Of a stretch of 64,000 nt of DNA, positions 17,398 through 23,295 are shown one piece after another. The DNA lies in IMG/VR virus record IMGVR_UViG_3300005096_000005, positions 32,001 through 96,000 of that record; one strand, 5' to 3'. The notes under the pieces are model-generated. The model was not told where the DNA came from and made no database searches. It was given only the letters and a program-made list of their open reading frames with translations. The translations under genes and the position numbers were made by a program. This stretch comes from a virus. The stretch's first letter is position 1. The number at the start of each line of letters is the position of its first letter.

Positions 17398-18627
17398 ATG
17401 ACAGAATTGTTTGAACTTCCACGTCTGTATGGTGAGGGAAGTAAAGGGACTACAAAGGAATGGGAGATAAGTGTGGTACCTGTTATGAGCCCTGACGGCG
17501 ACTACGGAGAGATCCACACCGAGTATGGCTCAACTGGAGCCAGAATGCAGACAACCGTCAAGGTTATCAAAGAAGGTAAGAACATCGGGAAGGCCAACGA
17601 AACAACCCCGTTCGAACAGGCTTGTAAGGAAGCCCAGTCAGCCTGGACCAAGAAAAAGAAGAAGGGGTACAGAGAGTCCATTGAAGATCTGCGGAACATG
17701 GTAACCGCGGCCGACATGACTTCTAAAGGCGCATCAGGCATTGAGAGTGGTAAGGCAATCCTTCCAATGCTGGCACATCCATTCAACAAGAGAAAGCACA
17801 ATATTGTATGGCCAGCATTCGCTCAAGCAAAGATCGATGGCCACCGGGCGTATGGTACAGACGGAGCCTTACTAAGCAGGGGCGGCGATCCGGTACCGAG
17901 TCTGCCGAACCTACCACACATTCAACGTGACCTGGACCGTCTTGCCAAGCTCCTGCCCGATGGAACATGGTATGATGGTGAGCTGTATACCAATGATCTC
18001 CCATTCGAGGAATTGGGCGGACACATACGCAGAGCGAAACTGAAGCAAGAGGCAATGGAATATCTGCCCCTTATTAAGTTTTACGTATTCGACTTATTCA
18101 ATCCAAAAGACCTCTCCTGGACATTTGAGGATAGGTTCAATCTTCTGGCCGCACAATGGGACTCATGGAAGCTCAAAAACATTATTCTTGTACCGATTAA
18201 CCTGGTGCATAATGAAGAAGAGTTACGTGCTTTCCATGACATGTGTGTACAAGCTGGCTATGAAGGGGCCGTCATCCGCAATGCTTTGGGGACCTATGCA
18301 ATAGGTCATCATTCTGCCGATACTCAGAAGTTCAAAGAGTTCCAGGACGATGAGTTCCCAATCATCGACTTCAAGGAGGGAACCGGCAAAGACGCCGGCA
18401 CAGTTATCTGGGTATGTAACACTAAGGTAAAAGGCTCTGCCGGTGGCGTGGAAGTTGTGCCCCACTTTGATGTTCGCCCTGTGGGATCTCATGAATACCG
18501 GGCAAGACTGTTTCAGGACGGTGAGAGCTTCATAGGTAAGAACCTTACAGTTCGTTACCAGAACCTGACAGAATACGGTATTCCACGCTTCCCGGTCGGT
18601 CGCGCGATCAGAGAAAAAGGAGAATGA
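17398..18627 (+). CDS. lig: ATP-dependent DNA ligase with N-terminal WGR-like domain
   Basis: PMLAH; KIDGHR; YDGELY; FYVFD; YEGAVIR; KFKEF; PRFPV. Confidence 0.93.
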   Translation: MTELFELPRLYGEGSKGTTKEWEISVVPVMSPDGDYGEIHTEYGSTGARMQTTVKVIKEGKNIGKANETTPFEQACKEAQSAWTKKKKKGYRESIEDLRNMVTAADMTSKGASGIESGKAILPMLAHPFNKRKHNIVWPAFAQAKIDGHRAYGTDGALLSRGGDPVPSLPNLPHIQRDLDRLAKLLPDGTWYDGELYTNDLPFEELGGHIRRAKLKQEAMEYLPLIKFYVFDLFNPKDLSWTFEDRFNLLAAQWDSWKLKNIILVPINLVHNEEELRAFHDMCVQAGYEGAVIRNALGTYAIGHHSADTQKFKEFQDDEFPIIDFKEGTGKDAGTVIWVCNTKVKGSAGGVEVVPHFDVRPVGSHEYRARLFQDGESFIGKNLTVRYQNLTEYGIPRFPVGRAIREKGE

Positions 18628-19163
18628 CCATGAAGAATGAGCTTCCCATGGGGACTTTCACACACAACAAAGGCATCCATCTATATATGTATATAGTGTC
18701 GGATAGTGAGCCCTGTGGCGTTTTCGCAATCAGATTGAGTGAAACGGTTCCAATGAGTAAAGTACTCAAGTCATTGGATACTCCTTTTGTCTCACTCTAT
18801 AAGCTCTCCCATCTAACACATGAAGGACTGGAGAAGATGCTCAACATTGTATCGACACAGTATCATAGCGAGATGCTCAGAGCTGGCACTTACGGACATA
18901 AAACCCCCAAAGGACTTGTTCCAAAAACGGGTGTTTGTATTGGAGTAAGATACTCTGATTCCACAACAGGAACGACCGGAAGCGGGCGAATGATCCAGGT
19001 CCAGGGAGTTGACAAGGTCGACAATGTTAGGTTGAAGATCCGCGACGCCATTGATGACCTTTGCGACAGCATTGTAGAAGATGCAACAGACTGGAACTAT
19101 AGACTCGCCAGAGAGAACAAAATAACCAAGCCCTCAAAGCGAGCAAAGAAGACTACTGAATAG
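18624..19163 (+). CDS. Hypothetical protein
   Basis: ATGA coupling to the ligase; AGGAG RBS. Confidence 0.7.
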   Translation: MTMKNELPMGTFTHNKGIHLYMYIVSDSEPCGVFAIRLSETVPMSKVLKSLDTPFVSLYKLSHLTHEGLEKMLNIVSTQYHSEMLRAGTYGHKTPKGLVPKTGVCIGVRYSDSTTGTTGSGRMIQVQGVDKVDNVRLKIRDAIDDLCDSIVEDATDWNYRLARENKITKPSKRAKKTTE

Positions 19164-19177
19164 AAAGGAGGATAGAC

Positions 19178-19465
19178 ATGAACAGATGTCAGATATGTGT
19201 GCCCCAGGAAGTAATTCTGACAGCCCTCAAAAACATCGGCTATAGCCTTGCGGGTGATACGTGTGTATGCGGTGCCGAATTCAGTTCTAAAGACAATTCA
19301 ATCTGGCTTGAGTTGGAAGGAGAGATGAAGCGAGAAGTGGCCATAGAGTTCCCGACAATACAACAACTCAGAGAAACGGACAGTCACCTTCAAGAGCTGA
19401 AGAACCCAATACCGACAATCAGAATCATTCCTCTGGACGAAGACGGCCACCCGACCGACCCATAA
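19178..19465 (+). CDS. Hypothetical small Cys-containing protein
   Basis: AAGGAGG RBS; CQIC...CVC. Confidence 0.7.
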   Translation: MNRCQICVPQEVILTALKNIGYSLAGDTCVCGAEFSSKDNSIWLELEGEMKREVAIEFPTIQQLRETDSHLQELKNPIPTIRIIPLDEDGHPTDP

Positions 19466-19772
19466 GTCCTTTCAATACATCTCCACCTTCTGGAGCCACA
19501 GCTTTATCTCTCTCTGCCGTAACACTATGATTGACACTGGGTGGTACCACGACCGCATTCGTAAGCGCGGGCTTGGTCCACTCTGGTGTCTTCTTTTGTG
19601 GAGATAAGGTGTTCGCCCGGCTCACATTTCCTACCTCTGCATTCTGTGCTACGACCTGTGAGAGCAGACGTACATCCGGTGTTTTCCTCATACAATACCC
19701 CAGTTTAATTACACCATAAGCAATCACACACAGTGCCCCTGTACTTATAATTGAACAGAGGTCCTGTATCAC
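19425..19772 (-). CDS. Small single-pass membrane protein downstream of actin-like gene
   Basis: GGAGG RBS; GTGA overlap with the actin stop; N-terminal hydrophobic helix followed by a polar tail. Confidence 0.7.
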   Translation of the reverse strand: MIQDLCSIISTGALCVIAYGVIKLGYCMRKTPDVRLLSQVVAQNAEVGNVSRANTLSPQKKTPEWTKPALTNAVVVPPSVNHSVTAERDKAVAPEGGDVLKGLMGRSGGRLRPEE

Positions 19773-20926
19773 GGCTTGCCTCCTGCCGGATGGAACCCGG
19801 AAGGTATTGGAGGGAGCTCTGTCTGTTGAGGCTCTTGTTGTGGAGCCTCTTTTTGTGGCTCATCGCCACTCCCAGCCTTGTCGGCACTGGGTTCGGTCAC
19901 CTGTTCCGGCTGTTTTGCCGGAGACGAGGTTTCATCTTCATCAGAAGATGCCTCTGCATGCAGTAGAGCACCCTTTGCGACCGCATACAATGGATCCTGT
20001 ACATGAAACACATCTCCGATAGGTATAGGGAATCCTACAGCCTTAAAACGCTCCTCAAAACGCTTCACAAACCCCGGAACCATAGATGTGCCCCCAGCTA
20101 TAGCGATCTGCAGAGGCTCCTTAACCCGTGGTGGACGCTCGAGTGTATCAAACGCTGCCTTGATATTCTTGGCTGTGGCATCAATCAAGCTGTTATAAGC
20201 CGACTCAATCTGCCACAGTCCGTCACGTCCAATATTGTTGTTATCCAGAGAGAACTCATTCTCCTTCATATCTGTTATCTCTGCCCTGGAAAACCCGGAG
20301 GCATCTGCAGCAACCTGGTCTACCCAATCTCCAGACTGTTGCATACTAAAGGAGAACAGCTCATCTGCCAGGAATGAGAAGCTGACATTGACCATACCTC
20401 CGCCAAAGCTGATACCTATCCCTGTGAATCTGGACTTAGCAAGGGCAGAGAGTACGACACAATAGCCTTCGTGTACGGTATCCACAGTCCAGCCGAGCTC
20501 GCGCAGGATCTGTAGGAGCACGTCTTTGTGGTGGTCGATAAGGTACTCACAGTCGATAGTGGGAGCCGGTATACTGAGTGTGCAATTACCTCTACCCTTA
20601 CTGGCAACAGACTCCACGATAGCGCGCAACATAGGGTACGCATCCCGCTCCTTCTTATTAAGAATGCCTCTACTCAAAGGCCTCCGCACATCCATGGAGG
20701 TCGGATTGCTATTCGCGTACTCCAGGGCGGAATCACCAACCAGGGCAATTTGGCCATCTTCCCATGGAATCCAATCTATATTGGGATCCTGAGTAAGCAT
20801 CTGCCTGTTAAACTTTGTTCCTTTAATGAGCACAAAACAGTTTCGTTTGCGTGTAATCTCAACATCACGTTGAGCACGCCTGGCGCCTACCACGAACATT
20901 GTGCCACAGTCCATTCCAAGATTCAC
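19769..20926 (-). CDS. Actin-fold ATPase, volactin-like
   Basis: Phosphate-1 GMDCGT; connect-1 HEG; phosphate-2 GISFGGG; adenosine IAGGTS; connect-2 AVAKGA; GGAGG RBS. Confidence 0.88.
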   Translation of the reverse strand: MNLGMDCGTMFVVGARRAQRDVEITRKRNCFVLIKGTKFNRQMLTQDPNIDWIPWEDGQIALVGDSALEYANSNPTSMDVRRPLSRGILNKKERDAYPMLRAIVESVASKGRGNCTLSIPAPTIDCEYLIDHHKDVLLQILRELGWTVDTVHEGYCVVLSALAKSRFTGIGISFGGGMVNVSFSFLADELFSFSMQQSGDWVDQVAADASGFSRAEITDMKENEFSLDNNNIGRDGLWQIESAYNSLIDATAKNIKAAFDTLERPPRVKEPLQIAIAGGTSMVPGFVKRFEERFKAVGFPIPIGDVFHVQDPLYAVAKGALLHAEASSDEDETSSPAKQPEQVTEPSADKAGSGDEPQKEAPQQEPQQTELPPIPSGFHPAGGKP

Positions 20927-21195
20927 TGGGCACCTCCCTGCTGCCCCACGGCCTGTATCATACGTCGCGTTATCTCTGCCTGCGTCCGCTTGGCAGCAAA
21001 CACAGAACCGAGCTTAAGTTTTTGCATAGACATTGCAAACTCAAGCAGGGAATGCACGTCTTCTAATGGGACACCATCCTCGGTTTGGGTAATCCCACTA
21101 AAAGTAAAGCCACCATTCGGATGCCTCTGATAATTGATAGTAATAGTGTGATCCACCGGCTTTGGTACTTCCTTCTTTGTTGCTCTTTTTGCCAT
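20923..21195 (-). CDS. Small protein coupled to actin-like gene
   Basis: AAGGAGG RBS; GTGA overlap with the actin start. Confidence 0.75.
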   Translation of the reverse strand: MAKRATKKEVPKPVDHTITINYQRHPNGGFTFSGITQTEDGVPLEDVHSLLEFAMSMQKLKLGSVFAAKRTQAEITRRMIQAVGQQGGAQ

Positions 21196-21210
21196 AACTG
21201 CCTCCTTAAC

Positions 21211-23295
21211 TTATTCGACGACGATCTTCTTAAAAGACGGGGTAGCGCTATTGTCGAAACGTTTGATCGTTCCCGTCATATCGTCAGTCCTCACCCCAAA
21301 AACAACCTCAATACGCCCGTCTCCTTTATCCACCACATCCGCAAATCGCGGTTCAGTAGCAGGATCTGGATTAAACAGAGCGTACTTATTATTGACCCAG
21401 GACGAGGTCTTGTCTCTTATCTCTTCCATCACAGCAGCCGTTGCAGGATCGAACTCAATCTGAAAACTGCCGGTAGGCTTATACTCTCTGTGATATACTC
21501 CTATATGCATGGCTCCCATCATAACATTGCGACCAGTGGCTATCTCGGGCGTATAGTCAGCCACAAACACCAGACGCAAGAAGTTTAACTCTGTCCTCTT
21601 TACGTGGAGCTCAAGCATCCCCGCATTCCAAAAGATGTTCGGTCCTACCCCCAGAATAGTGTCAGGGTCGCCACCGGTAGTACTCAGGTTGTAAGGACCA
21701 AACTTTGGACTATACGGAACAGGTGTGTCGGGGCTATATGTACCGCCCACCCCGGCATCCATGCGAAACTGTCTGCCCATACCGTCAAGGCCGAATGGTT
21801 CTCCGGTGGAATACCGGACGTCTACAAGATGCATCCGGAACAGCGGAAGTGGATGTATCTGTATTGTGTTCATAAACATGTTTGAGTTAATATCCTGCGG
21901 TAGTTCGATATCATACAGGACCAGTACATGCGACGTTTGCACATCATTATCAAACGGTCTAAGCACAGGCCCATTAAGGTCAGTAACGGGAACAAGGTAC
22001 CATGCTGGCGTTGTTGGGTCTCCGTCCATAGCAAAGAGTGGATCAGTCTGTTCAAACACAGTTTGGATGTCCGCCGACGAGAGCTCCGGACTCACAACAG
22101 AGGCATCCTGCCTGGCAAGTACAGCGTCCTCAAGAATCTTCGAAAGATTGAATGGATTACCAGACCTGAACGGATCATAGTATCTATACTCATTACCATT
22201 GGTATCCTGAAGCGTCTCACCATGAATCCGGAATATCCTGGTGCTCACCTTTAAAGAGTCTGGCACCAACACTTTATCCGTCCCTCTCATCAATGCCTTG
22301 TCTCTCTCAGACTTGTATGGCAAAGTAATCTGTCCGTATGTGGGGTCGTGATGACAATTAGCTGAGTTTGTGAGCAAGCGATACATCGCATTATGTGTGA
22401 CCGGCCCCAGCCTTCCGGATGTAGCAGTCCAAACCCCGCTTGAGGTATGAAAGTCCACGATTACTTGCTCGGAAGGAGAATTAAGTGATACGTTTCCGCC
22501 CTGAGGGACAACAGTCATGTATCCGAGAAACTGCTCAGATCCATTATGCAATACAAGATTGTAACCTGTAGCAATAATATTCTTGGAGCGGTCAAAGAAG
22601 TAGAGAAAGACCGGGGTAGCACTGTCGTTTCCGGTTGCTACTTGCTGGTAAGATTCAACCCTACCAAGATAAAGATCGTTTTGTAATGACACACGAATCA
22701 GGGTCTCATTAGTTGCATGATCTTCATGAAACAAGAAACGATCCTCCGCCTGCTCATAATGGAAGGTTGTCAGATTGGTGGGAAGGGTACCAGCATCAGT
22801 CATGACAACCCAACCATTCGCAACATCCCAGTATTCAACCTGGAAAGGCGCCGCCTTGAATAGTGGTGTGACTGCAAGGTCTGCATAATCTATCCCTCCC
22901 ACATTCACAGTGCTGCCCAGATTTGCAAGAGCGTGCAAAAGACTGAACCTGCATTCATCTATGCCTTCAATTGTCTGGTAATCAGGCGGAAGTTGTATGA
23001 TTGCGAATGATGAACCGGATTGAGCATGTGACGTAACGGTATCAACCGGCGCAGTAAATGGATTTGTAACCCCGGAAAACGAGAGGGATTCGACCATTCC
23101 CTGAAGACTGTCCAGTTGTCCCCCAATCGTATCTTCTATCTGTTTGCTCTTTACCAGTAGTCCCGCATTGAAAGAGTACAATTCTGCCAGGTCTCTGGCC
23201 ACGTTCTCAATAAACTTATTAAGGTCTCCAGACGCAGCAATACCACGATACCTGGTCTTTATTCCTTTTGTTGTAATGTTTACCTGGTTATTCAT
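21211..23295 (-). CDS. Putative virion (tail/baseplate) protein, coiled-coil paralog family
   Basis: N-terminal RG...S.DLN.F.E...DL..LY plus coiled coil; beta-rich and acidic. Confidence 0.7.
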   Translation of the reverse strand: MNNQVNITTKGIKTRYRGIAASGDLNKFIENVARDLAELYSFNAGLLVKSKQIEDTIGGQLDSLQGMVESLSFSGVTNPFTAPVDTVTSHAQSGSSFAIIQLPPDYQTIEGIDECRFSLLHALANLGSTVNVGGIDYADLAVTPLFKAAPFQVEYWDVANGWVVMTDAGTLPTNLTTFHYEQAEDRFLFHEDHATNETLIRVSLQNDLYLGRVESYQQVATGNDSATPVFLYFFDRSKNIIATGYNLVLHNGSEQFLGYMTVVPQGGNVSLNSPSEQVIVDFHTSSGVWTATSGRLGPVTHNAMYRLLTNSANCHHDPTYGQITLPYKSERDKALMRGTDKVLVPDSLKVSTRIFRIHGETLQDTNGNEYRYYDPFRSGNPFNLSKILEDAVLARQDASVVSPELSSADIQTVFEQTDPLFAMDGDPTTPAWYLVPVTDLNGPVLRPFDNDVQTSHVLVLYDIELPQDINSNMFMNTIQIHPLPLFRMHLVDVRYSTGEPFGLDGMGRQFRMDAGVGGTYSPDTPVPYSPKFGPYNLSTTGGDPDTILGVGPNIFWNAGMLELHVKRTELNFLRLVFVADYTPEIATGRNVMMGAMHIGVYHREYKPTGSFQIEFDPATAAVMEEIRDKTSSWVNNKYALFNPDPATEPRFADVVDKGDGRIEVVFGVRTDDMTGTIKRFDNSATPSFKKIVVE

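Follow-up and report, generated by a model that had tools for sequence, protein, structure and literature searches.

The window examined here, 64,000 nucleotides long, covers bases 32001-96000 of the 170,138-bp viral contig IMGVR_UViG_3300005096_000005 from IMG/VR, whose estimated completeness is 78%. On its minus strand it encodes an actin of the volactin family (385 residues) coupled to a small single-pass membrane protein (115 residues). Our analyses make it probable, if far from certain, that the two genes form a module in which the volactin-type actin polymerises and the bitopic partner tethers the filaments to the membrane. The N-terminal helix of the partner would be anchored in the host inner membrane, with its disordered linker extending into the cytoplasm and its C-terminal module gripping the actin in two places, the edge of the subdomain-IA sheet and the cleft by the C-terminal helix. 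The filaments would be held at the membrane, probably by one end, and the partner-occupied cleft may correspond topologically to the ParR site on ParM. The module probably acts late in infection, since it is transcribed with virion genes, and a membrane adaptor is plausible because the actin begins four residues ahead of the phosphate-1 strand and is itself without an N-terminal extension. The evidence favours no single one of the roles suggested earlier for such filaments, namely trafficking of capsids or DNA, placement of assembly sites and remodelling of the host cell.

A phage-encoded actin of the volactin family

The actin gene (19769-20926, minus strand) starts with GTG behind a GGGAGG at 20938-20933 and encodes a core of residues 1 to ~330 with a tail over residues 326-385. 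Its product matches the Pfam Volactin profile (PF25216) along the full length of the latter (E=3.5e-68; 230.9 bits against a cut-off of 35), residues 1-324 aligning to profile positions 1-321 of 321, and a genome-wide profile search returned the same result. The MreB_Mbl hidden Markov model (HMM; PF06723) scored 15.3 bits on this protein, below its cut-off of 27, and the best and only match in a sequence search of the PDB was MreB, at E=0.07. All the motifs quoted for the protein in the original prediction, which had been made from the sequence alone, are found in the translation (GISFGGG, RNCF, VGDSALEYAN, RRPLSRGIL, GDWVD and PLYAVAKGAL). An alignment of 80 family sequences shows no variation at D6, G8, E153, S173, G175, G177, G278 and G279 and very little at T9 and T280; the invariant positions cover the phosphate-1, catalytic glutamate, phosphate-2 and adenosine motifs. 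The serine in phosphate-2, noted earlier as standing where MreB and ParM have aspartate, is invariant throughout the volactin family and is therefore not specific to this actin.

The AlphaFold2 (AF2) model of the protein is confident, with a mean predicted local distance difference test score (pLDDT) of 89.6 and a predicted template modelling score (pTM) of 0.83. Among solved structures, the top Foldseek matches are MreB, MamK and BeeR, with eukaryotic actin also found and E values down to 1e-15; MreB is the closest solved fold, at a template modelling score by target of 0.66-0.71 (2wus among the matches). To our knowledge, no volactin structure has been solved. In a library of viral structures the nearest models are mostly Hsp70 homologues, as might suit a non-polymerising ASKHA ATPase, a chaperone or kinase that merely resembles actin. 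We give this explanation hardly any weight, as that library holds no close relative of the protein, the solved structures that rank highest are MreB, MamK, BeeR and actin, and the full-length match is to volactin, a family whose founding member assembles into dynamic filaments in living cells. The full-length profile match, the family motifs and the fold therefore show that the resemblance to volactin proposed at first was correct, and the protein does not group with ordinary ParM or MreB. The 385-residue protein is a volactin-family actin with a confident four-subdomain actin/MreB-like fold, and it presumably polymerises.

An exhaustive search for relatives of the actin yielded 859 representative clusters. 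Relatives are encoded on at least 547 IMG/VR contigs, the longest of 461 kb, and in 329 bacterial species genomes, among which Planctomycetota dominate and Omnitrophota, Nitrospirota, candidate phyla radiation (CPR) bacteria and Elusimicrobiota are also represented. The nearest cellular relatives, at ~35-39% identity, belong to uncultured bacteria and not to haloarchaea. Volactin had been taken as a haloarchaeal signature, a view that does not hold for a family so widespread in bacteria and phages. A megablast search of the region against 50,697 phage records gave no match, and tblastn retrieved two deposited phage records only, both from metagenomic huge phages, at ~30% identity. In the phylogeny, the window actin and four proteins 61-69% identical to it form a long-stemmed clade (Shimodaira-Hasegawa-like approximate likelihood ratio test, SH-aLRT, 100) distinct from both the main viral clade and the clades of cellular proteins. 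The clade is rare and deeply separate, and its members come from groundwater metagenomes. Elsewhere in the family, many proteins (P0121, P0130, P0146, P0168 and others) either reach ~700 residues with two matched stretches, as tandem actin duplications, or have N-terminal extensions of 100-350 residues.

The membrane partner and its predicted complex with actin

The gene directly downstream of the actin encodes the 115-residue partner (19425-19772, minus strand; GTG start, AGGAGG at 19784-19779). Its N-terminal transmembrane (TM) helix, at about residues 4-27 (19692-19763, minus strand), has a Kyte-Doolittle score of 1.83 in a 19-residue window and is followed by R29, K30 and R35. Because basic residues follow the helix, the positive-inside rule suggests that the C-terminus lies inside the cell. 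In the AF2 model of the partner alone, one helix spans residues 2-29 and a second, short one residues 99-103 over VLKGL, with a low-confidence body between them. This agrees with the earlier description, which gave the protein a TM helix at the N-terminus, a disordered body and a short amphipathic segment at the end. No Pfam or PHROG family matched the partner, and no DNA-binding domain was found in it.

The two genes lie in a row of three minus-strand open reading frames (ORFs) joined by GTGA overlaps at 20926-20923 and 19772-19769, both read directly from the sequence, with a Shine-Dalgarno site 6-8 nt before each of the three starts. This organisation, including the GGAGG-type ribosome-binding sites, is as had been described. 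The proposal of a three-gene cassette stood for the actin and its coupled downstream partner and failed for the first gene, a 90-residue soluble protein (20923-21195, minus strand; ATG start, AAGGAGG at 21207-21201), as a conserved member. A coupled downstream ORF of 98-107 residues is present in all four clade relatives with a readable downstream gene, and the survey of neighbourhoods thus recovers a conserved TM partner: the N-terminal TM helix is retained in four of the four sequenced clade partners. The sole homologue of the 90-residue protein is the product of an 84-residue gene at the same position in one related phage, L002 (33% identity over 40 residues, E=2e-7). The gene is missing from three other clade members (L089, L090 and the contig of P0004), and in L090 the actin directly follows the C-terminus of the structural gene. 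In the related 33-kb contig that holds this homologue the order matches that of the window, with a structural gene, the 84-residue gene, the actin, a 101-residue gene and then convergent replication genes. Since the 90-residue gene is shared with one relative alone and the partner occurs in all readable relatives, the conserved unit is two genes, the 90-residue protein being lineage-restricted. No family matched this protein, and all scores in an Atlas search were below 0.9.

The four available clade partner sequences (alignment A2) align over the TM helix, a W-x-x-P motif, a strand-like segment and the C-terminal helix, with W65, P68, P77, H82, A86, G96, D98, L100 and G105 invariant. A deep search with the partner alignment recovered the four known members only, and tblastn matches to the 90-residue and 115-residue proteins were confined to the clade's own loci.

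To model the complex, actin residues 1-335 were combined with partner residues 56-115. The prediction reached a score of 0.78 (0.78, 0.79 and 0.77 in individual runs), as compared with 0.01 for the best of three controls; the score mark was attained by 58 of 80 solved complexes and by 2 of 110 mismatched pairs, which is a rough calibration because own alignments were used. The runs share at least 60% of their contacts, with partner pLDDT of at least 54. The predicted actin-binding module comprises partner residues 76-104 (19461-19547, minus strand), a strand segment followed by a short amphipathic helix. In the model, strand 22-27 of the actin pairs with residues 86-91 of the partner, whose L100 enters a pocket formed by actin residues 159, 167, 187 and 322, so that the interface coincides with the two partner segments conserved within the clade. 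The modelling supports binding of actin by the C-terminal strand-plus-helix module of the partner.

The same pocket lies beside the C-terminal helix of actin, which, from general actin-fold topology, we take to be the docking site of the next subunit and, on ParM, of ParR. The partner might then be a regulator that caps, nucleates or sequesters actin at the membrane through this subunit-contact cleft. We consider such a role unlikely as the main function. The TM helix is retained by each of the four clade partners sequenced and by the majority of phage partners, and its most direct reading is localisation to the membrane, and end binding of the ParR type both caps and tethers, so that regulation overlaps with anchoring more than it excludes it.

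Adaptors across the family and in known systems

In 63 of 74 IMG/VR loci, the gene directly upstream of the actin encodes a protein of ~100 residues in which an N-terminal TM helix and a disordered linker precede a strand-like segment and, at the C-terminus, a basic amphipathic helix. At cellular loci, the upstream gene is of another size and its product lacks the TM helix, yet it has a closely similar C-terminal peptide. When an HMM was built from the phage partner tails only, the extreme C-termini of Planctomycetota neighbours ranked top among 3,288 ORFs. Across dozens of Planctomycetota chromosomes (L110-L171), the upstream gene encodes 200-600 residues without a TM helix and almost invariably ends in IAANLARLKKLKGGG. 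An acidic-proteome genome (L172:4001-6770) carries tandem volactin paralogues of 381 and 517 residues after a 334-residue protein that ends in the same sort of basic helix.

The closest bacterial homologues of the window actin were located inside gas-vesicle (gvp) clusters (L008:8001-9089, L094, L096, L098, L103, L104, L108 and L119) from Omnitrophota, Nitrospirota, Elusimicrobiota, Saganbacteria and CPR bacteria. There the actin sits between GvpF/L and a protein of 150-200 residues that has the shared basic peptide at its end, an arrangement which suggests that it positions gas vesicles. No paper on a volactin-type actin positioning gas vesicles was found in the literature. The use of an adaptor with a short actin-binding peptide at its end appears to extend to Planctomycetota, to bacteria that have gas-vesicle clusters and to haloarchaea.

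The link between the window clade and these partners runs through a common architecture and a few bridging sequences. Both of the nearest outgroup actins have partners with an N-terminal TM helix, one of which ends in DALKSLKRG, compared with DVLRDLRRG and DALRRHRRG in the clade. An HMM of the whole clade module gave one good match, to an ORF in actin locus L022, plus a few true partners, and a helix-only HMM from the window-clade partners returned noise. Pfam returned nothing for the window partner family or for the common phage one. From these sequences, homology between the window partner and the common family partners is probable, not shown. The nearest outgroup actin, P0134 (L175:1-11011), is surrounded by genes for replication and recombination (Pol III beta, RecU, RecA, uracil-DNA glycosylase and methylases) and not by virion genes, and the C-terminal helix of its upstream TM partner is acidic, not basic.

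Several points weigh against a membrane-tethering module. The confidence of the partner in the complex is modest (pLDDT 54-61) and its alignment contains only four sequences, and the contact surface on the actin shows no elevated conservation (0.41, the core average being 0.48). As set out above, a partner seated in the inter-subunit cleft could cap or sequester actin instead of anchoring it. Comparison of the window partner with the common phage partner family by hhalign detected no homology (probability 4.7%). The tail HMM of the common partners misses the tails of the window clade, and the A4 HMM of the common partners gave nothing significant in the whole contig. The clade's connection to the shared peptide therefore depends on resemblance by eye and on a handful of bridging sequences. 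Finally, the late timing is deduced from gene position alone.

The common phage module (L009-L088) offers a close parallel, with a ~100-residue N-terminal TM partner upstream of a 334-residue actin of the same family. The partner there is built on the same plan, from the TM helix at the N-terminus through a disordered linker to a C-terminal strand plus basic helix. The window actin is 31-36% identical to these actins and belongs to its separate clade (SH-aLRT 100), the gene order is inverted with the partner downstream, no partner homology is detectable, and both the actin tail and the position at the end of a virion operon are specific to the window clade. The window locus is a distinct variant of the phage volactin module. 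The existence of this second configuration, with inverted order, an added tail and a virion operon, argues that the pairing of actin and membrane protein is functional and not an accident of synteny.

Beyond phages, VolA of Haloferax volcanii (HVO_2015) belongs to the same Pfam family over its full length, and its neighbour HVO_2016 is a membrane protein (PMC12126565). Haloferax volactin filaments are dynamic and contact the membrane with their tips, dynamic filaments in vivo having been shown for VolA alone (PMC10869688). This tip contact matches end-tethering by an adaptor. In comparison with the Haloferax pair, the window actin is phage-encoded, falls in a deeply separate clade and has an extra proline-rich tail, and its partner is a single-pass protein of ~100 residues encoded downstream and not a CdpA-like protein with four TM helices. 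Two small proteins with a defined peptide and defined pocket residues could reveal how volactin filaments attach to the membrane, a question left open by the Haloferax work.

The MreB/RodZ pair (2wus) also consists of a bacterial actin, here the closest solved fold, and a bitopic membrane protein that binds it by its cytoplasmic part. RodZ does so through a folded N-terminal helix-turn-helix domain, whereas the window partner is predicted to use a C-terminal peptide module; moreover, MreB lies flat on the membrane, and the MreB HMM stays below its cut-off on the window actin.

Actins with small adaptors are also known from DNA segregation, in ParM/ParR of plasmid R1 and in AlpC/AlpA of prophage CGP3, the latter showing that phage-borne actins exist (PMC4446434, PMC5539076). 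Here, too, an actin is paired with a small adaptor, whose terminal peptide is predicted to enter an actin cleft. This resemblance might indicate ParMRC/AlpACS-like segregation of a plasmid-like or pseudolysogenic phage genome, an option that we hold to be very unlikely. ParM and AlpC belong to other actin families and their adaptors bind DNA and centromere repeats, whereas the window adaptor is a membrane protein without a DNA-binding domain and its genes lie within a virion operon. A scan of 18600-21700 revealed no centromere-like iterated repeats, only chance-level short matches of two or three copies.

The tubulin-fold PhuZ/TubZ of nucleus-forming jumbo phages is likewise a phage-encoded cytoskeletal polymer. 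No match to the tubulin/FtsZ GTPase domain (PF00091) was obtained in the 170-kb contig, which at ~78% completeness leaves the absence unproven. The cytoskeletons known from phages are PhuZ, a tubulin, and a single prophage actin whose adaptor binds DNA; the volactin module would add an actin with a membrane adaptor in hundreds of uncultured large phages. We found no publication on a phage volactin with a membrane adaptor, and the one paper found to mention volactin together with phages does so incidentally. A more ambitious reading, to which we assign a rather low probability, is that of a second, independently organised phage actin cytoskeleton, in which the adaptor holds one filament end and the tail docks cargo or a host division or shape protein. 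Being expressed with the virion genes, it would organise the place of particle assembly or release. The pairing of a volactin-type actin with an adaptor that has a shared peptide at its end would then be a transferable unit, which phages, bacteria and archaea have put to repeated use for membranes, gas vesicles and further kinds of cargo.

The actin tail and the genomic setting

The tail of the actin (residues 326-385; 19772-19951, minus strand) is found only in the five proteins of the window clade. Its 60 residues include 11 prolines and 12 Asp/Glu compared with 4 Lys, for a net charge of -8, which bears out the ~60-residue acidic, proline-rich tail noted previously, and it is disordered in the AF2 model (pLDDT 37-67). 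The tails are variable except for a short motif, LPxIPxGFxP, at residues 371-380 (19787-19816, minus strand), which is kept in all five proteins (P0001-P0005) and has a single occurrence in the 170-kb contig. The tail with its terminal motif is a candidate second docking site, for cargo or a host factor. FtsZ docks onto its membrane tethers by a disordered linker and a terminal peptide, an arrangement that the actin tail may loosely resemble.

Such a linker with a conserved terminal peptide would also suit an action on the host cytoskeleton, either by recruitment of host division or shape proteins through the tail or by co-assembly with, or poisoning of, a host volactin filament, with the size, shape or division of the cell altered for the benefit of the phage. 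Compatible with this idea, actins of the volactin family are frequent among bacteria from the same habitats (including Planctomycetota, Omnitrophota, Nitrospirota and CPR bacteria). It nonetheless seems improbable to us, given that identity to any cellular homologue is at most ~39%, that the phage encodes its own partner and that the likeness to the FtsZ peptide is loose.

Directly upstream of the 90-residue gene, in the same operon, lies the gene for a 694-residue virion structural protein (21211-23295, minus strand; phrog_19670, E=2.3e-9), whose stop codon is 15 nt ahead of the 90-residue start. A scan for promoters and terminators between these two genes gave signals only at chance level. 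The 90-, 385- and 115-residue ORFs are the final genes of a long minus-strand block of large virion proteins, with PHROG matches to 'virion structural protein' and an M23 peptidase, and the location assigned to them at the end of the operon is confirmed as the 3' end of a virion-structural operon; the three proteins themselves had no match in PHROGs. The label of jumbo phage, in contrast, is an extrapolation, because the contig measures 170 kb at its estimated completeness of 78%.

Convergent with the virion block is a plus-strand replication block with Pol III alpha, a subtilase, Rad52, DnaB, a Nudix protein and an ATP ligase. A tRNA scan of the window found none. At the end of the replication block lies a 95-residue ORF (19178-19465, plus strand), for which Pfam gave no match and no counterpart was called at the corresponding place in the related 33-kb contig. 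Its product contains cysteines, and its reading frame converges on the 3' end of the partner gene with an overlap of 41 nt.

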